DNA of 49,558 nucleotides from an uncultured Bacteroidota bacterium (GCA_903879775.1 CAIRMY010000065.1:1-49558), one strand, 5' to 3'. Numbered from the stretch's first letter, positions 33,410-42,428 are shown. Notes: a model not told the origin generated them from the letters alone. Made by a program: numbers and translations.

Positions 33410-33918
33410 TTTTGATTATTCAAATACTGTTGATAGCCAATTTCTTCAACAGATGTAGCTTTGTTCAACACTTCTTGATTCATTTCATTTTTGAAGGATA
33501 TGACTTCACTTGCAATTGCTTCATTGGTTACACCAAGAATTTGAGCAGCCAAAATTCCAGCGTTTTTAGCACCGTTTATTGCAACCGTAGCCACTGGTAC
33601 TCCTGGAGGCATTTGAACAATTGAGTATAAACTATCCAAACCGCTCATATTGCTAGATTTAACTGGTACACCAATCACAGGCAAGTGCGTAAACGATGCA
33701 ATCATCCCTGGAAGATGAGCAGCGCCACCGGCACCAGCAATAATAACACCAATGCCCCTTAAATGAGCATTTTTGCCATAATCAACCAATCTATCAGGTG
33801 TTCTATGAGCTGAAACAATGGTTAGCTCATATTCAACCTTAAATTTATCTAAAATAGATGCCGCTTCTTGCATCACTGGCAAGTCGCTATCGCTACCCAT
33901 TATTATTCCAACTTTCAT
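33406..33918 (-). CDS. purE: 5-(carboxyamino)imidazole ribonucleotide mutase
   Basis: [15 protein letters not shown] and [10 protein letters not shown]. Confidence 0.93.
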
Positions 33919-34649
33919 GATTCAGATTTTTCAGATTTTACAACTGCATTTGCAATAAATGATATTGCAATGTAAACAAAATATAACACTGCAATTCCAG
34001 CAGGACCAAAAACGATAATGCTTAAAGCTCCAAGCACTAAAATTGCAAATTTCCAAGGTGTTAAAGGATCTCCTTTTTTAAATTTTAAAGCCAACATGGG
34101 ATAATCAGAGATCATCATAAATGATGCAAATACGGGAACATAAAACCAAACATAGAAATAACTAAAGGCCCAACGAATATCTAAAAGCATCCAAAAAGAA
34201 TGGTCAATTGAGTATATCATCCAACTCCAAGATGCCAATGCAATTCCCGTAATTGGTGTTGGAACACCTAAAAACCCGGTCGATTGACGTGTATCAATAT
34301 TAAATGTTGCTAAACGGTATGCAGCACCTAAAGGAATCAATAACCAAATGTATGAATTGATGCAAAATCCTGTAGCAGAACAAAAACCTTGTGCTTCCAT
34401 ATAAAAGCGCCAAATTAAGCCTGGTAAAACACCGAACGTTACAACGTCAGCGAGGCTGTCGAGCTGCTTTCCCAACTCGCCATCTGCCTTCAATAATCGG
34501 GCAAAAAATCCATCAAAAAAGTCTAAAACTGCCCCAGCAATCATAAATAAAAAGGCAAAAAATGGATTTCCTTGCGATACCATGGTAATACCAAGTAAAC
34601 CGCAGGCCAAATTGCCGAGAGTAATTAAATTGGGAATTGATTTAATCAT
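33915..34649 (-). CDS. pssA: CDP-alcohol phosphatidyltransferase (phosphatidylserine-synthase-like)
   Basis: The exact motif D-x2-D-G-x2-A-R-x8-G-x3-D-x3-D is present in [26 protein letters not shown]. Multi-pass membrane protein. Confidence 0.8.
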
Positions 34650-34659
34650 ATTGAATCCT

Positions 34660-34667
34660 CAAAGATA
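34660..34667 (-). promoter_or_regulatory. Bacteroidota -7 box upstream of pssA-purE
   Basis: Plus strand caaagata = minus strand TATCTTTG, located in the 30-nt gap and 10 nt from ATG 34649. Confidence 0.5.
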
Positions 34668-34679
34668 CTTAATTCCTTA

Positions 34680-36584
34680 TTAATGATAGATAGAAGACCT
34701 AAAATTCACAAAAACACCAAAGTCTTTAAAAACGGCATCTGAACTTTTACCAAAATTTTGATATTCTATATGACTTTGATTAAAATTCCACTTTTCGTCA
34801 TTAGATCTGTATAAAATTTGATACTTCGCACCAATGCCAACATATTTAGAAAAATTGTAAATCAACTGAATTTGCCCACCATAAACCATTGATTGTGATT
34901 CTATTTTCACCCTATTAGTGTTCGCATTTAAGATGTCGGCACTTTCAGGAAAATTTTCAATACTCTGGTAATAATATCCCCCAATACCAAAAAAGTCCAA
35001 TTTTAATTTCCGTGTGTTCACGGCTCTAACCCCCATGCCAAAAGTTGCACCAAATAAATTATAATTCAATTTCTTTGCAGAATCACTTTGAATTTCGGCT
35101 GAATTTATGTTATAAAATATATTCGCCTGACATATAAACCAGCGGTTATTATGTTCAACATGGTGATTTATATACCAATTTGGCAAGTTAGAAATATTGG
35201 TCTTTAACGAACTTAAATGATTCGACATCATCGATAAGTTAGGGATACCATAACTTAGACCGAAAAGGTTAAAATTGAAATCTTTGCGATCTATCTGACT
35301 CCACAAGGAAAATTTGTCAGATTCCTCTTCAGATGCCTCAAGCAATACTAAACCTGTAGAATCTAAACTTGGCAATTCTAAAACATTATCAGAATTCAAC
35401 AAAACAAAATTGAATTTTTTGCGAAGCTCTGTGTAATCTCCTGTGCTATCAGACAAATCGAATAACAAAGGCCATTTTGATTTCACCTTTTTAATTTGTT
35501 CAAGCTCTGCACTAATGGTATAATTATCGTTCAATTCAACCGCCGCTAAGTTATCTTCATTGTCTCTATAACTAATTGCAATACTCACAACTTTTGTTGA
35601 ATCTCCTTTAAAATATCTTGTTTTTATTTTGTTGCAAACACTTCTGTAATTATACCATCCACAATCTCCAAATTGTTTTGATAAAGCAGAATGACAACGA
35701 CCAAATTGACCAAAAAACTTTTGTGTTGTATCGGCCGCTAAAACCTTTACAAAGTTCTTAAACATTTGTTCTTCCCGCCAAATATATTGGTGAGCCGATT
35801 CCTCTGTATTTGTCCATTTGCGAAATTCCAAAGCCCCACTATATCCCTCCTTGAAAATTTCAAAATCCTCAGGACTCATCCATTGTTTAAAGTATTCAAT
35901 ATGAGCAGTAATAGAATCAATCACTTTCACAATATTGTAATCTGATGTAGACACATCTCCTAAATCAAAATCAACTGTAGCAAATGTAGCAGCGGTATAA
36001 TCCGACAAACCAGAATGATATGTTTGTTTCACAATCTGAGGAATAATTTGCTTTGCCAAAAGGTAAATCTTTTTGTTCGGAACGGTTTTTTGAAGTTTTA
36101 ATGCATCATTCATGCGATAAAAACTCATATCGTAAAAACGTTCAATGTCTAGACCATGCACATGAATTCTTTCATTTTGAGGGACATTTTTCATCCAGGC
36201 ATTGAGGTGATCAAACAAGGTAAGAAACTTATCTGAAGCAACACTTTTTAACAAATCTCTGGCATGTGTATCGTTATAACGGATATACCTTTCCATGTAA
36301 TACGACCTAACTGGACTCATTTCTATGATAAAATTACGGTAACCACAATTTTCATACAATGAGCGCATTAACATGTATTCAGTACGGGCATTAAATTCAA
36401 TTTGAGAATGATTTTCTCCGGCAAAAATAACCCTCGCTTTGCGCGCCTTTTGATAGATGGCTTCAAAACCTGGACTCTTATTGTCAGAAATATCATTCAA
36501 ATTGAGCACTTTAGGATTCACATTACTTTGAGCGAACAACGAAGCGGTGATGATTTGAAATGCAAGTAAAAAAATCTTTTTCAT
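34680..36584 (-). CDS. Secreted ChaN/Tiki/erythromycin-esterase-like domain fused to a C-terminal beta-barrel-like domain (motif-intact paralogue)
   Basis: Signal peptide MKKIFLLAFQIITASLFA-Q; the track starts 4 codons earlier at 36596. Motifs ARVIFAGENHSQIEF (GExH), IWREEQMFKNF (RExxM) and FGQFGRCH (GxxH). The last ~200 aa are strand-like (LFGATFGMGVRAV, LDFFGIGGYYYQS, VYGGQIQLIYNF, VGIGAKYQILYRS, FGVFVNFRSSIYH). Confidence 0.4.
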   Translation of the reverse strand: MKKIFLLAFQIITASLFAQSNVNPKVLNLNDISDNKSPGFEAIYQKARKARVIFAGENHSQIEFNARTEYMLMRSLYENCGYRNFIIEMSPVRSYYMERYIRYNDTHARDLLKSVASDKFLTLFDHLNAWMKNVPQNERIHVHGLDIERFYDMSFYRMNDALKLQKTVPNKKIYLLAKQIIPQIVKQTYHSGLSDYTAATFATVDFDLGDVSTSDYNIVKVIDSITAHIEYFKQWMSPEDFEIFKEGYSGALEFRKWTNTEESAHQYIWREEQMFKNFVKVLAADTTQKFFGQFGRCHSALSKQFGDCGWYNYRSVCNKIKTRYFKGDSTKVVSIAISYRDNEDNLAAVELNDNYTISAELEQIKKVKSKWPLLFDLSDSTGDYTELRKKFNFVLLNSDNVLELPSLDSTGLVLLEASEEESDKFSLWSQIDRKDFNFNLFGLSYGIPNLSMMSNHLSSLKTNISNLPNWYINHHVEHNNRWFICQANIFYNINSAEIQSDSAKKLNYNLFGATFGMGVRAVNTRKLKLDFFGIGGYYYQSIENFPESADILNANTNRVKIESQSMVYGGQIQLIYNFSKYVGIGAKYQILYRSNDEKWNFNQSHIEYQNFGKSSDAVFKDFGVFVNFRSSIYH

Positions 36585-36585
36585 C

Positions 36586-38355
36586 TTAATATCCATAGTT
36601 TAAACCCAAACCTAGTTCAAAATAACCACCAGTTGCATTCATCTTGCCAACTGAATTAATCTGATTTCCGTGATATTTCCATCTGCTATCAGACATATCG
36701 TATTGATATCCAGCTTCTGCCCTTAAATAAATTGCACTGAGAGCTACCTTCATATTTAACCCCATTCCATATAAAAATCCATCATTTGTAACTTGATACA
36801 TTTCTGATGGGTTTGTTATAAATTGGTCAAACGGGGAACTCAAGGTTTTAGAGAGCGTAAAATTGTAATAAGAAAGATTATTTCCTAAATAAATTGTTAA
36901 AAAATTCGTTTCAAACAATTTATTTTCTATAGATATCCCAATTTGATTCGCCCACAAATTATCTATCGATTCATTTGAAAAGAGCTGATTGTAATTGATA
37001 CGATAGCGTGTATTATGCGACCTATAAGACCTTGATCCAAATATCGTTGGTCCATCTTGAATCACAAAACTGCAGCCAATTGTCGATATATGATTCATTT
37101 GATTTGCAGGATCGGCAACTTCTTTAAAAGACTTAATATCGTTATACCAACGAGAGTAAACAGATTCGAAACCAAAAGATCTAAATGCAAAAGGCTTAGA
37201 AACAAATGAGTTTTCTGATTCAGAATACCCCGCGTATTCAATGGCGGCCGCAGAATCATAGACGGCTTCAGTTGAATCAACATAAGCAATTTTAACAATG
37301 CCAACAGTATCTGTAAAAATATCATGGAACAGTATTCCATGAAGCTCAGCATTTGTCAAAATAGAATCTCTATTTTCATAAAAAAGAACCCTTTTTACTG
37401 CCACGTTGGGATATAAATCGGCAAGAATGGTTCTCAAAGAAACAACCGGAGCTTTTGAATCGAGTTCTTTGTAAAAATGTCCCTCATCAACAAATAAAAA
37501 ATAATTTTTATTTGTTGTGACAATGATTTTATCCAATTCAAGAAACAACTGATTTCGATTCTTAAATGGATCTTCACCATTGTCTACATATAAATATTTA
37601 TTGGCGAATGAAAAACCAAGCGCTTTAATTGATTGTACGTATTGAATCCAATTACCTCTTTCACTATGATCAATAAATGGTCGAATTGCGGTATCAATTT
37701 TATCGATGCTATGAATAAATTCAAATAAAGTATGGCTTACTTTAAATGAAGGACTATATGTTTCAGATAAAGATAAATCTTGATCGATGAGGGTTAAATA
37801 ATCATAAACAGCTTCATTTGCGTCAATATTTGTTTGAATATCAATATCTAAGCCTTTGATTTTCTCTGTGAAATAGTGAATCAAGAAAATGTTTGAATTC
37901 ATTTCATTTTGAAATTGGTCAACGGTAAAAAAGCTTTCAAATTTTATCAATTTCTTTTGATCTATTGTTAGCGCAGATTTCCAAGTACGTAAATCATCTA
38001 AATATAAATCGAGTTTTAATTTTTTCTCGGCATCAGCTTGATAAATATTTAAAGCAGGAATTCGCTTGAGATATGTTTCAAAAATCGAATCTTTTTCTTC
38101 TTCAGCATGGAACCAAGAATTTAAAAAAAACATTGACGCCCAAGAATATCCTTCCAGTAAAATTACATTGGTATCGGATTCACTTAGGAGCTGAGTTAAT
38201 TGTTTTAATTCTATAAGTGCACCTCCGTAAGTATTTTCAGTAAAATTGATGAGATTCAGTTTGGCGGGACTGTGTTTCTTGAATGAATCTACATTTTGAG
38301 AAAACGCAGAAACACCAATAAATATGATCGTTAACAAAAGAAATAATTTCTTCAT
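36586..38355 (-). CDS. Secreted paralogue of the downstream gene with degenerate ChaN/Tiki-like motifs and a C-terminal beta-barrel-like domain
   Basis: Signal peptide MKKLFLLLTIIFIGVSAFS-Q. LLEGYSW stands where the partner has GENH, NRNQLF where it has REEQMF, and FVDEGHF where it has GRCH. C-terminal strands are FLTIYLGNNLSYYNF, FLYGMGLNMKVAL, IYLRAEAGYQYDM and GGYFELGLGLNYGY, ending in an aromatic residue. Confidence 0.35.
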   Translation of the reverse strand: MKKLFLLLTIIFIGVSAFSQNVDSFKKHSPAKLNLINFTENTYGGALIELKQLTQLLSESDTNVILLEGYSWASMFFLNSWFHAEEEKDSIFETYLKRIPALNIYQADAEKKLKLDLYLDDLRTWKSALTIDQKKLIKFESFFTVDQFQNEMNSNIFLIHYFTEKIKGLDIDIQTNIDANEAVYDYLTLIDQDLSLSETYSPSFKVSHTLFEFIHSIDKIDTAIRPFIDHSERGNWIQYVQSIKALGFSFANKYLYVDNGEDPFKNRNQLFLELDKIIVTTNKNYFLFVDEGHFYKELDSKAPVVSLRTILADLYPNVAVKRVLFYENRDSILTNAELHGILFHDIFTDTVGIVKIAYVDSTEAVYDSAAAIEYAGYSESENSFVSKPFAFRSFGFESVYSRWYNDIKSFKEVADPANQMNHISTIGCSFVIQDGPTIFGSRSYRSHNTRYRINYNQLFSNESIDNLWANQIGISIENKLFETNFLTIYLGNNLSYYNFTLSKTLSSPFDQFITNPSEMYQVTNDGFLYGMGLNMKVALSAIYLRAEAGYQYDMSDSRWKYHGNQINSVGKMNATGGYFELGLGLNYGY

Positions 38356-40351: not shown

Positions 40352-41073
40352 TGAAAGTTGATATCCTAGCCATAGCAGCACACCCAGACGACGTTGAATT
40401 GGCGTGTTCTGGAACCGTTATCAAACACATCGAAATGGGTTATACGGTTGGCATTGTAGATCTCACCCAAGGCGAACTTGGCTCTAGAGGTTCAGCTGAA
40501 ATCAGAAGTCAAGAATCTGCGGAAAGCGCAAAAATTCTTGGAATTAATTTTCGCAAAAACCTCAAATTGGCAGATGGTTTCTTTGAACAAAATGAAGCTT
40601 CACTCATGGCATTGATCACCGAAATTAGAGAAGCTCAACCCAAAATTGTTTTTGCAAATGCCCCGAAAGACCGTCACCCCGACCACGGCAGAGCGTCGGC
40701 CTTAATTTCCAGAGCTTGTTTTTTGGCAGGTTTGCCTAAAATTGAAACTAGCCTGAATAATGTCCCTCAAAAAGCACATAGACCCAAATCAATTTATTTC
40801 TATATCCAAGATTACAATATTGGACCCGATTTTATCGTTGATATAACAAAACAATACAATCAAAAATTGGAAAGTATTTTGGCCTTCAAAAGTCAATTTT
40901 ATAACCCAGTATCAAATAGCAATGAACCATCGACTCCAATAAGTTCAAAAGAATTTATGGATTTCTTGGAGGGACGTGCGTTGGAATATGGACGATTAAT
41001 TGGGGTGAAATACGGCGAAGGGTTTAAAATAGAACGACCAATTGGCATCGAAAATTTAATGGAAACACTTTGA
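40351..41073 (+). CDS. bshB1: Bacillithiol biosynthesis deacetylase BshB1 (LmbE/PIG-L family)
   Basis: AAHPDDVELACSGT and DRHPDHGRA. The ATG overlaps the upstream TAA stop by 1 nt. Confidence 0.8.
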   Translation: MKVDILAIAAHPDDVELACSGTVIKHIEMGYTVGIVDLTQGELGSRGSAEIRSQESAESAKILGINFRKNLKLADGFFEQNEASLMALITEIREAQPKIVFANAPKDRHPDHGRASALISRACFLAGLPKIETSLNNVPQKAHRPKSIYFYIQDYNIGPDFIVDITKQYNQKLESILAFKSQFYNPVSNSNEPSTPISSKEFMDFLEGRALEYGRLIGVKYGEGFKIERPIGIENLMETL

Positions 41074-42428
41074 GAATATTAGGCTTCATATTGATCTTTC
41101 TTTCTTCCTATTTAGGCAATCAGGTGAATGCGCAGGCCAATATTGACCGCCTAATGAAAATCAATCCAACTCAAATTGGAACTCATCCGTTTGCAAAAGA
41201 CAGTGATATCTTGTACATGCCAATGGATTTTTCATCATCTGAGTTTGTTAAAAATTATACAAATTACAAATTCCCTAAAGACCGATTTGTAATCACCATT
41301 CATTTGGTTTACACCAAGTACAGGGAAGTCGATACATTTAACCAACCACTTTTGAATCGAAACCGATTCGAAAATTTAAAAACCGTTTGGCCCGAACTCT
41401 TTTCTACGAAAGGAATTCAATTTAAAGTTTTTGAGCAAAACAGTGCAAAAACAGAAGATGCCGCAAAAAAATTATACCATGGATTTATCATTTTCTTCAA
41501 GGCCAAAGTCACTCAAAAGGTAAAAGAGGAAAAAGGCATTATTGGTTATACAATCAGCACTTACAGAGATTCTATGGTATGGACAGCCGAGAAAATTATT
41601 TACAAAAAGAGAAAACGATACGTTGAAACAGGCTATTATTTGGCCAATGATCCTGAAAAAAGAAAAGAAGGTTTTAAATACAAAACGCCTTCTATTTGGT
41701 TTAGGGAAAAAGAAACTAAATTAGTTATAGATAGTGTTATTGCCCGAAAAATTAAGTCGAAAAAGGTGAAGGTAGGTAGATTCGACAAACGATTCTTACA
41801 AAATACCAATGAATATGATGCGTTGGTGAACAAAACTTGGAAAGGAAAATGGGGCATTGTAACCGATGTTACTGGGAGTATGGGCCCTTATTCTGCTCAA
41901 GTTTTACTTTTTTTAAAATACAATTCCGAAGTACTTAAAAACAGTAGATTTACCTTTTTTAATGATGGGAATGGCGCTCCAGAATTGATCAAACGCATTG
42001 GATCATCGGGGGGTGTTTACAACGTAAATAGTAACAATTTTGATACCATTTACCAAACTATTTTAACCGCCATGGAAAATGGAAATGGTGGCGATATCCC
42101 TGAAAACAATATTGAAGCCATCATTAGTTGCGCTAAAAAATGGACCGATATAGATACGATTCTCATGATTGCCGATGCCGGCGCTCCTATCAAAGATATT
42201 GTGCTGCTGAAGCAATTGAAAAAACCAGTTTCGATTGTTTTGTGTGGGAATGTTGATGGAAATATCCCTTTCGACTATTTTATGCTTGCAAGAGAAACAG
42301 GTGGAACCATCATTCAAACCAACGATGAAATTAGAAACCTTAGAAAATTTAAAAAAGGTGATGTTGTAGAAGTTGGCGAAAGAACCTACCGATTATCGGA
42401 GTTTGGTTTGCTAAGAACCGACGAATAA
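41070..42428 (+). CDS. Secreted protein with a C-terminal von Willebrand factor A-like domain
   Basis: TTG start overlapping the bshB1 stop (TTGA). Signal peptide MRILGFILIFLSSYLGNQVNA-Q. MIDAS-like DVTGSMG, followed by FFNDGNG and MIADAGAP segments. The N-terminal half is not recognisable. Confidence 0.45.
   Translation: MRILGFILIFLSSYLGNQVNAQANIDRLMKINPTQIGTHPFAKDSDILYMPMDFSSSEFVKNYTNYKFPKDRFVITIHLVYTKYREVDTFNQPLLNRNRFENLKTVWPELFSTKGIQFKVFEQNSAKTEDAAKKLYHGFIIFFKAKVTQKVKEEKGIIGYTISTYRDSMVWTAEKIIYKKRKRYVETGYYLANDPEKRKEGFKYKTPSIWFREKETKLVIDSVIARKIKSKKVKVGRFDKRFLQNTNEYDALVNKTWKGKWGIVTDVTGSMGPYSAQVLLFLKYNSEVLKNSRFTFFNDGNGAPELIKRIGSSGGVYNVNSNNFDTIYQTILTAMENGNGGDIPENNIEAIISCAKKWTDIDTILMIADAGAPIKDIVLLKQLKKPVSIVLCGNVDGNIPFDYFMLARETGGTIIQTNDEIRNLRKFKKGDVVEVGERTYRLSEFGLLRTDE

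Follow-up and report, generated by a model that had tools for sequence, protein, structure and literature searches.

The question raised by this locus is whether two adjacent genes of an uncultured Bacteroidota bacterium encode an exported hydrolase and its catalytically degenerate paralogue, each carrying its own outer-membrane β-barrel. The pair was noticed in a first-pass annotation of a DNA stretch of 49,558 nucleotides (the window), which proposed that both proteins joined a ChaN/Tiki-like domain to a barrel-like C-terminal region, with the motifs intact in one and degenerate in the other. All features described here lie on the minus strand, with coordinates counted along the window. The same adjacent open reading frames, of 589 and about 634 aa, were recovered. 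Gene A (36586..38355) is the upstream, catalytically degenerate paralogue, a 589-aa ORF composed of signal peptide, soluble domain and 8-stranded barrel. Gene B (34680..36596), the motif-intact downstream paralogue, encodes 638 aa from the ATG at 36596 or 634 aa from the likelier ATG at 36584. The junction (TAAgATG, 36582..36588) reads ...AAC TAT GGA TAT TAA g ATG AAA AAG, in which the stop codon of A, a single base and the MKK start of B follow one another, and the alternative ATG of B (MDIKM) generates an overlap of 11 nt with A; both arrangements had been reported and both were read in the sequence. Since the consensus of the B family begins with MKK, the 634-aa form is favoured; residue numbers below follow the 638-aa form. 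The motifs quoted earlier were also located, namely ARVIFAGENHSQIEF, IWREEQMFKNF and FGQFGRCH in B, and LLEGYSW, NRNQLF and FVDEGHF in A.

Both proteins had been described as carrying signal peptides ending in S/A-Q, and both N-termini are SPI-like when judged by eye. The signal peptide of A (aa 1-19, MKKLFLLLTIIFIGVSAFS, 38299..38355) is predicted to be cleaved by the SPI pathway between SAFS and the invariant Q20, and that of B between SLFA and Q23. The Gln following the predicted cleavage site (+1) is invariant within the A family alignment and within that of B, which fits the 'Q-rule' as outlined for Bacteroidetes signal peptides (PMC5837995).

The soluble domain of B (aa ~23-430, 35307..36530) displayed an erythromycin-esterase-family fold by PDB profile comparison, by Foldseek and by Pfam matches in its relatives, of which 65 were found by sequence search. 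The B-family profile matched Bcr135 (2rad) in the PDB with an E-value of 1e-7. Foldseek comparison of the B model (AF2, pLDDT 88.8) with the PDB returned 2rad (Bcr135, E 3e-13), 2qgm (Bcr136, E 3.4e-12) and EreC 6xcq (E 3.9e-11), with a target TM of 0.53-0.60 against Ere structures and an identity to Ere proteins of 11-15%. PF05139 was matched by 24 of 40 full-length B relatives (best E 3.3e-8), and the B protein of the window, taken alone, reached 13.5 bits (E 0.058) against a cut-off of 26.4 bits. In the same Pfam search A did not match PF05139, and neither A nor B matched the TraB or Cofac_haem_bdg/ChaN families at E <= 10. On these matches the soluble domain of B is assigned, within the TIKI/ChaN superfamily, to the branch of the erythromycin esterases (Ere, PF05139), and the initial placement in the ChaN/Ere/Tiki superfamily can be narrowed to the Ere family.

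The catalytic residues of EreC are E47, H50, E78, R261 and H289, in which R261 participates in transition-state stabilisation (PMC7979712). The GENH motif of B (G60-E61-N62-H63, 36408..36419), aligned to 'GEAtH' of Bcr135, would provide a catalytic Glu/His pair equivalent to E47/H50 of EreC; three of its residues (G60, E61 and H63) are invariant, and N62 hardly varies. The invariant E92 (IIEMS, 36321..36323), aligned with 'LEE' of Bcr135, would be the second catalytic Glu (EreC E78), and the invariant R274-E275 (WREEQM, 35772..35777) would be, from its spacing, the positional counterpart of EreC R261. The invariant GQFGRCH (G296 to H302, 35691..35711) contains the putative catalytic His (EreC H289), and the 28 residues from R274 to H302 equal those from R261 to H289. 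Among 40 aligned B relatives, E61, H63, E92, R274, E275 and H302 were invariant, as were C301 in GQFGRCH and the nearby C312; beside H302, these two cysteines would fit an oxidising compartment. The first motif is E-x-H in B and E-x-x-H in Ere enzymes, whereas the spacing in RRSP (E3900/H3902) equals that of B. The hallmark of the TIKI superfamily, which covers TIKI/TraB/PrgY/ChaN/RRSP and includes the Tiki Wnt proteases and MARTX RRSP, is a parallel β-sheet core with a 2His/2Glu constellation (PMC6254334). The α/β core is common to B, in which the 2His/2Glu set is represented by E61/H63, E92 and H302.

The soluble domain of A (aa ~20-390, 37186..38298), about 45 aa shorter than that of B, appears to be a diverged Ere-like domain devoid of the ExH motif and of the terminal His. 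Only seven close relatives of A were found by sequence search, and its AF2 model (pLDDT 71.2) was built from 19 sequences; Foldseek with this pLDDT 71 model retrieved no Ere structure at E <= 0.001. BLASTP of A against B revealed nothing, but hhalign of the two families aligned the barrels with 97.6% probability (E 3.5e-12) and the soluble domains alone with 95.0% probability (E 3.5e-8, 140 columns). In the models, the order of secondary-structure elements in the soluble domain of A parallels that of B. The suspected paralogy was therefore borne out, and A and B are, on family profiles, shown to be homologous, a relation visible at that level only. Neither in the sequence of A nor in its family alignment were the catalytic His residues of the Ere set present or conserved. 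LLEGYSW had been taken as the equivalent of GENH, but hhalign pairs it with the B strand of the second Glu, 'IIEMSPV', and one β-α unit seems to be missing from A, so that the earlier motif-to-motif mapping is uncertain. The loss of the ExH motif stands despite this uncertainty. Identities within the soluble domain are 25-33% for A where B shows 48-54%, and those of the barrels are similar between A and B; by this measure, the soluble domain of A is evolving about twice as fast as that of B.

The C-terminal region of A (aa ~391-589, 36589..37185), which ends in GLGLNYGY as first read, and the homologous region of B (aa 438-638, 34683..35285) were both modelled as 8-stranded barrels. By Foldseek, the barrel of A matched OmpA 1bxw (E 7.4e-8) and NspA 1p4t (E 4.3e-7), and that of B matched OmpA 9fzd (E 3.5e-7), Ail 3qra (E 2.4e-6) and OmpX 1qj9 (TM 0.73); the best barrel matches were all 8-stranded (OmpA, Ail, OmpX, NspA, OmpW), with a target TM of 0.6-0.73. 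The barrel-like ending proposed for both proteins was thus recovered, the models showing the last ~200 residues of each as predicted 8-stranded barrels of the OmpA/OmpX/NspA type. Pfam OMP_b-brl (PF13505) matched neither A nor B and was found weakly in 2 of 40 B relatives (E ~0.003). The A protein terminates in ...NYGY, and the last strand of B ends in ...FVNF, followed by RSSIYH; A-type barrels carry their own invariant loop motif, D-x-x-D-x-R-W. A type V autotransporter barrel was rejected on the DSSP pattern and on the best matches, both of which correspond to eight strands.

According to DSSP, the connections in the modelled B barrel comprise 2-4 residues after strands 2, 4 and 6, and 12-25 residues after strands 1, 3, 5 and 7. 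This alternation is common to the A and B models and to the known 8-stranded barrels (OmpA N-domain, OmpX, Ail, NspA, OmpW). Since, in such barrels, short turns canonically face the periplasm and long loops the exterior, the N-terminal domain of B would be placed in the periplasm. Together with the gene fusions described below, the barrel topology, read from the B model and the general rule, suggests a periplasmic location for both soluble domains. Whereas OmpA begins with its barrel and continues into a periplasmic domain, A and B carry the barrel at the C-terminal end, preceded by a presumed periplasmic part with an enzyme fold.

The conservation of the pair was evaluated in 80 related loci, all from Bacteroidota MAGs, of which 76 were assessable for an upstream partner. 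A degenerate partner abutted or was fused to an intact B in 61 of the 76 (52 full, 6 truncated and 3 fused); the remaining 15 had no partner and corresponded to the most distant B relatives, indicating that B-type proteins can work alone. In 52 species-level genomes the A-type partner was a full-length ORF without interruption (556-831 aa), with B divergence reaching down to ~27% identity. Every complete B carried both GENH and GQFGRCH, the latter being missing in two loci with a truncated B ORF, and neither motif occurred in any upstream partner ORF of the loci compared. In 13 loci the upstream partner matched the B family over its full length (E 1e-99 to 1e-37); in these alignable partners the ExH His was always replaced, and H302 was replaced in 11. 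Moreover, in three species-level MAGs A and B formed one protein of ~1500 aa, ordered as signal peptide, dead domain, barrel, a ~90-aa linker without a second signal peptide, intact domain and barrel. Such fusions would require that both soluble domains lie on the side of the membrane where the barrels begin and end, and they argue for joint action. The putative enzyme/pseudoenzyme pairing recurs in many uncultured Bacteroidota, and the contrast between intact and degenerate members raised by the first-pass annotation is real, being conserved across lineages as a property of the pair. No published description of this architecture was found in the literature.

The explanation favoured here, with moderate confidence, is that A and B are tandem duplicates, an active B and a pseudoenzyme A, anchored by their barrels to the outer membrane and forming a probable heterodimer on its periplasmic side. 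The two genes would derive from an old tandem duplication of a single gene, whose product would have been Sec-exported, with an N-terminal Ere-family hydrolase domain and a C-terminal 8-stranded OmpA-like barrel. Presumably, BAM inserts the barrels in their usual orientation, so that their termini lie in the periplasm and the soluble domains are suspended beneath the outer membrane, at its inner face. B would be the active subunit, a predicted hydrolase in which His63, held by Glu61, would act as general base, Glu92 and His302 would position the water, and Arg274 would serve the transition state. In this way, B may act on a component of the envelope, cleaving either an ester or a peptide bond; for freshwater MAGs, macrolide hydrolysis would be an improbable native role. 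A would be the pseudoenzyme, in which the catalytic His residues are gone and one β-α unit seems to be missing, but whose ORF is nevertheless maintained intact immediately upstream of B, and within the probable A/B heterodimer it could be a scaffold, a substrate binder or a regulator. The Ere group (EreA/B/C, Bcr135/Bcr136; 6xcq, 2rad/3b55, 2qgm; PF05139) has the soluble fold and the E, H, E, R and H catalytic residues in common with B. However, Ere proteins are described as soluble enzymes of ~400 aa, with no signal peptide or barrel mentioned, whereas B is exported, fused to a barrel and accompanied by a dead paralogue. Likewise, unlike A and B, none of the TIKI superfamily members, as described in the literature, has a β-barrel anchor.

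A different role for the barrel is known from Pseudomonas EstA, whose GDSL passenger is held on the surface by a 12-stranded translocator with a pore helix; translocators of type V are built from 12 or more strands, with a helix inside the pore. By analogy, the barrel of B would be an autotransporter-like translocator and its Ere-like domain a surface exo-esterase or peptidase. The parts follow the same order in one polypeptide, with an N-terminal esterase-type domain, a short helix (aa 413-426 in B) and a C-terminal barrel, and EstA (3kvn) was among the Foldseek matches (E 3.6e-4). However, that match is structurally poor (TM 0.16, rmsd 30 Å), other autotransporter matches are also weak (TM 0.16-0.30), the enzyme folds differ (GDSL versus Ere), and the helix between the enzyme domain and the barrel of B has a pLDDT of 43-57. 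Surface display is made quite unlikely by the 8-stranded nature of the best barrel matches, which leaves no pore for a translocator helix, and by the fused A-B protein, in which a complete barrel is followed by another soluble domain, an order hard to square with passenger export. Even less probable is that B binds instead of catalysing, its conserved residues being contacts for haem or another cofactor taken up in a ChaN-like manner. ChaN is an outer-membrane-associated protein, and its structure 2g5g was significant in Foldseek (E 9.5e-5), yet B is nearer to the Ere branch, which is matched far better (E 3e-13, target TM 0.56-0.60 versus 0.44 for ChaN). In addition, B possesses the complete Ere catalytic set with the identical Arg-to-His spacing, and the pair is flanked by yicC and pssA and not by a TonB-dependent receptor.

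The downstream neighbour, a pssA-like CDP-alcohol phosphatidyltransferase (33915..34649; PF01066; best NCBIfam match TIGR00473 pssA at 91.9 bits, below the cut-off of 107), bears on a specific version of the favoured explanation, in which B, with A, is functionally tied to this phosphatidylserine-synthase-like gene and would act on a lipid at the inner face of the outer membrane, for instance on the acyl esters of phospholipids or of lysolipids. This gene immediately followed B in 71 of the 80 loci, four more being contig ends, and did so even in distant singleton loci of B in which no yicC, purE or DUF3109 was found. The gap from the B stop to the pssA start had a median of 15 nt, with overlap in 10 of 68 cases, and Ere enzymes are carboxylic-ester hydrolases (PMC7979712). 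The lipid role is nevertheless considered unlikely, since the adjacency may be inherited gene order (purE and DUF3109 are also retained in 61-64 loci), other superfamily members include proteases, and pssA has in the window its own -7-box-like motif of the Bacteroidota type (TATCTTTG, 34660..34667, 10 nt before the pssA ATG), a consensus match only. The A gene could also be a decaying, functionless relic of the duplication, with B working alone, as would fit the lost catalytic residues, the fast-evolving soluble domain and the absence of a partner in some lineages. However, this is highly improbable given the full-length, uninterrupted A-type ORFs of 52 species-level genomes, the invariant residues retained in their barrels, the in-frame A-B fusion in three genomes and the single nucleotide between the A stop and the B start in the window.

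In the gene string yicC, A, B, pssA, purE and DUF3109, the four neighbours of the pair were identified by Pfam and NCBIfam as they had been annotated. As also noted at first, a -7 box precedes pssA and none separates yicC from A, the 25-nt spacer between the latter containing no minus-strand TAnnTTTG. However, the window holds 83 matches to this pattern against 72 +/- 7 expected, an enrichment so slight that presence or absence carries little weight. The A/T richness perceived by eye proved real but mild: among 34 ORFs of 200 aa or longer, A has the lowest GC content (0.318) and B the third lowest (0.334), against a window mean of 0.365. Since the GC3 of A and B resembles that of their neighbours, the low GC results from amino-acid composition and not from foreign origin, and the synteny of the whole gene string across the lineage likewise argues against foreign DNA.

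Genes A (36586-38355, minus strand, an ORF of 589 aa) and B (34680-36596, minus strand, 638 aa, or 634 aa if translated from the MKK start at 36584), each encoding a signal peptide, a soluble domain and a C-terminal barrel, abut one another, with a junction reading TAT TAA g ATG AAA AAG, which bears out the TAAgATG proposed in the first-pass annotation. Every peptide motif quoted there for the two proteins was found in the ORF translations, and the neighbours were those it had named: a YicC-family endoribonuclease gene upstream and, downstream, genes for a CDP-alcohol phosphatidyltransferase (pssA as best match), purE and DUF3109. Its overall interpretation was supported, with the corrections discussed below, and the observation itself was confirmed.

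Antibiotic esterases, signalling proteases and toxins all occur in the TIKI/Ere/ChaN superfamily, as does a haem binder; of its many bacterial members, most are uncharacterised. Taken alone, B barely grazed the Pfam erythromycin-esterase model (13.5 bits, E 0.058), and its NCBIfam scan was empty. Among its 65 full-length relatives, many have a precomputed PF05139 match, and NCBI labels one of them 'erythromycin esterase family protein'. When 40 aligned relatives were scanned singly, 24 matched PF05139 (best E 3.3e-8). The B-family profile retrieved from the PDB the Ere-like structural-genomics proteins Bcr135/136 (E 1e-7), in an alignment placing the GE-N-H of B on GEAtH and its IIE on LEE. 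The AlphaFold model of B (pLDDT 88.8) comprised two modules. In Foldseek, residues ~28-400 matched Bcr135, Bcr136 and EreC (E 3e-13 to 4e-11) and, more weakly, ChaN (9.5e-5), which agrees with the superfamily assigned earlier and specifies it as Ere; residues 438-635 matched the 8-stranded barrels OmpA, Ail, OmpX, NspA and OmpW (E from 3.5e-7, target TM <= 0.73).

In the alignment of the 40 relatives, E61, H63, E92, R274, E275, C301, H302 and C312 were invariant. These invariant residues include counterparts of the set assigned to catalysis in EreC (E47, H50, E78, R261 and H289), with an Arg-to-His spacing of 28 residues in both proteins (PMC7979712), and of the 2His/2Glu set of the TIKI superfamily (PMC6254334). 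This correspondence makes it very likely that B is an active hydrolase, and its fold together with its catalytic residues places it with the erythromycin-esterase family within the TIKI/ChaN superfamily; a ChaN-type binding function is disfavoured, since the catalytic set of B is intact. The invariant C301 and C312 (window 35661-35696, minus strand) flank the catalytic His302 and may form a periplasmic disulfide; B-like partners lying upstream of B in other loci retain the pair, which is missing from A.

The paralogy of A and B, also claimed earlier, had to be established by profile comparison, because BLASTP detected no significant similarity between them outside the signal peptides. A had no match in Pfam or NCBIfam, and its profile likewise retrieved nothing from PDB sequences. 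A word-indexed search yielded 7 close relatives of A, a second one with the A alignment gave no further relatives, and an exhaustive search of representatives, run with the A profile, returned 15 matches, 7 of them barrel-only. An iterative HMM search with full-length sequences was discarded as evidence of soluble-domain homology, since it converged on both families via the shared barrel; restricted to the soluble domain, the iteration stalled at 8 ORFs, and group-wise hhalign was used in its place. The C-terminal ~100 residues of the two families aligned with 97.6% probability (E 3.5e-12), and the soluble domains of the A and B groups, with barrels removed, with 95.0% probability (E 3.5e-8, 140 columns), which demonstrated the paralogy. 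The AlphaFold model of A presented the same order of secondary-structure elements as B; Foldseek retrieved barrel matches only, including OmpA 1bxw (E 7.4e-8), and found no Ere structures for the soluble domain (model pLDDT 71.2) at E <= 0.001. The anticipated C-terminal barrels were 8-stranded in both models and group with OmpA-like small barrels, a strand number on which an autotransporter reading fails.

The annotation had also regarded LLEGYSW, NRNQLF and FVDEGHF of A as equivalents of the B motifs. The loss of ExH stood, as it is absent from A under either mapping, but the equivalence itself is uncertain: hhalign placed LLEGYSWAS of A on IIEMSPVRS of B, in the second-Glu strand and not at GENH, where LLEGYSW would instead be put by its spacing from the N-terminal P-x-x-LNL element. 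This region of A is ~45 residues shorter than in B, which points to the loss of one beta-alpha unit and makes the motif mapping ambiguous. The His of FVDEGHF and the Arg of NRNQLF vary even among the close relatives of A. A-type barrels share invariant N515-P516 and Y550…D553…D556…R558-W559 (A ~515-559; window 36589-36750, minus strand), residues that fall in long, presumably extracellular, loops of the model; the aligned place in B (~599-603) reads NDEKW. This conserved loop motif suggests that the A-type barrel is more than a mere anchor.

When a pattern scan was applied to a single genome from each GTDB species, B relatives emerged in 204 genomes, the best 80 of which, all Bacteroidota MAGs and many from lakes or rivers, provided the loci whose ORFs were called and searched with HMMs of the A and B families. 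A full-length partner, that is, a degenerate A-type ORF, ended at the start of B in 52/80 loci; it was truncated in 6, at a contig end or through a broken ORF, fused with B in a single ORF in 3, lacking in 15 and not assessable in 4. Where found, the partner was always upstream of B and always degenerate: GENH and GQFGRCH occurred in none of the upstream ORFs and both in the complete B ORFs of pairs, and the contrast first noticed in one contig thus recurs across related loci. The partners in 13 loci were themselves unmistakable B-family proteins over their full length (E 1e-99 to 1e-37), with the ExH His substituted in all 13 (GEDYS, GQNSE, GINRA and others) and H302 in 11; these B-like partners link A to B. 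Measured against the window sequences, the soluble domain of A was 25-33% identical where that of B was 48-54% identical, and the barrels of both diverged at similar rates, a sequence pattern such as would be expected of a retained pseudoenzyme.

The B relatives in the 15 partner-less loci were the most distant ones, and several of these loci have the order yicC-B-pssA. Such an isolated B was seen in L060, L062, L065, L071 and L072 (also L061), in which GEDH replaces GENH; this order may correspond to the arrangement before duplication or to secondary loss. Seven loci (L001, L002, L003, L008, L010, L028 and L056) carry record labels such as 'Chitinophaga pinensis', 'uncultured Rhizobium sp.', 'uncultured Bifidobacterium sp.' or 'Sphingomonadales bacterium', which, on MAGs with the Bacteroidota gene string, look like placeholder or wrong taxonomy.

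In the fused loci (L019, L020 and L067, the last with an ORF running beyond the locus end), one protein, of ~1500 aa in complete ORFs, begins with a signal peptide, followed by the dead domain and a barrel whose C-terminus reads GYKFGLF; a ~90-aa linker, devoid of a further signal peptide, then leads to the intact domain and a second barrel. The intact domain carries GENH and, where the ORF is complete, WREETM and GQFGRCH. Short periplasmic turns and long extracellular loops are the standard pattern of outer-membrane barrels; in the B model, strands 2, 4 and 6 are each followed by 2-4 connecting residues and strands 1, 3, 5 and 7 by 12-25, from which the barrel N-terminus, and hence the enzyme domain, would be predicted to lie in the periplasm. 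This placement is also what the fusions would require, and they argue for joint action of the A-type and B halves.

The gene string was kept across the 80 loci, with pssA in 72, purE in 64, DUF3109 in 61 and yicC in 59. The tightest link was that of B to pssA, which lay immediately 3′ of B in 71 loci (4 more end at a contig edge), including distant singleton loci where other neighbours were not detected; the median distance from B stop to pssA start was 15 nt, with overlap in 10/68 cases. Co-transcription and a function related to lipids could account for this adjacency, but so could inherited gene order by itself. A hitherto unrecognised outer-membrane machinery of Bacteroidota, in which active and dead Ere/TIKI subunits, each anchored to the periplasmic face by its 8-stranded barrel, form a heterodimer that is co-transcribed with phosphatidylserine synthase and has envelope lipids as its target, perhaps hydrolysing acyl esters to maintain lipid homeostasis in the outer membrane, is, taken as a whole, a speculative and rather improbable reading.

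The -7-like box attributed to pssA, TATCTTTG, was indeed found, in a window where TAnnTTTG is barely above chance (83 matches against 72 +/- 7 expected). Another match, TAGGTTTG, in the 3′ end of A (36607-36614, minus strand), 23 nt before the MKK start codon of B, could serve as an internal B promoter, although the pattern is hardly enriched in the window. Sigma-70 promoter and terminator sites were no commoner than in shuffled sequence, and a hairpin followed by a T-run within A (37322-37342, minus strand) is probably a chance occurrence; scanning the window for Rfam families and tRNAs gave no matches. The A/T-richness judged by eye was confirmed, A (GC 0.318) and B (0.334) ranking first and third among 34 ORFs of at least 200 aa (window mean 0.365). 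Their third-position GC resembles that of neighbouring genes, so the low GC derives from amino-acid composition, and a foreign origin was rejected on the basis of this normal GC3 and the conserved synteny.

In A and B, a small barrel in the same polypeptide tethers the TIKI/Ere/ChaN fold to the outer membrane, a new deployment of this fold and the reverse of the OmpA layout. In full-text literature with partial journal coverage, no account was found of an Ere/TIKI fold fused to a C-terminal barrel, of a dead paralogue or of a conserved position before pssA, and a search for Ere-like domains with barrels, Ere pseudoenzymes or PF05139, with the same partial coverage, returned nothing relevant. 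The locus would offer a natural enzyme/pseudoenzyme pair kept across deep divergence and fused in some genomes, and its near-invariant place before a phosphatidylserine-synthase-like gene is a possible, testable lead into the lipid biology of the envelope in uncultured Bacteroidota that are abundant in fresh water. Moreover, the automatic annotation of some relatives as 'erythromycin esterase family protein' could inflate resistance-gene counts in resistome surveys.

Near the pair, a 452-aa ORF (41070-42428, plus strand) matched nothing in Pfam or NCBIfam. Its N-terminus resembles a signal peptide (…NQVNAQ/A, the slash marking the putative cleavage point), its DVTGSMGPY resembles, by eye, a vWA MIDAS motif, and it is conserved close to A and B in 45/80 related loci.
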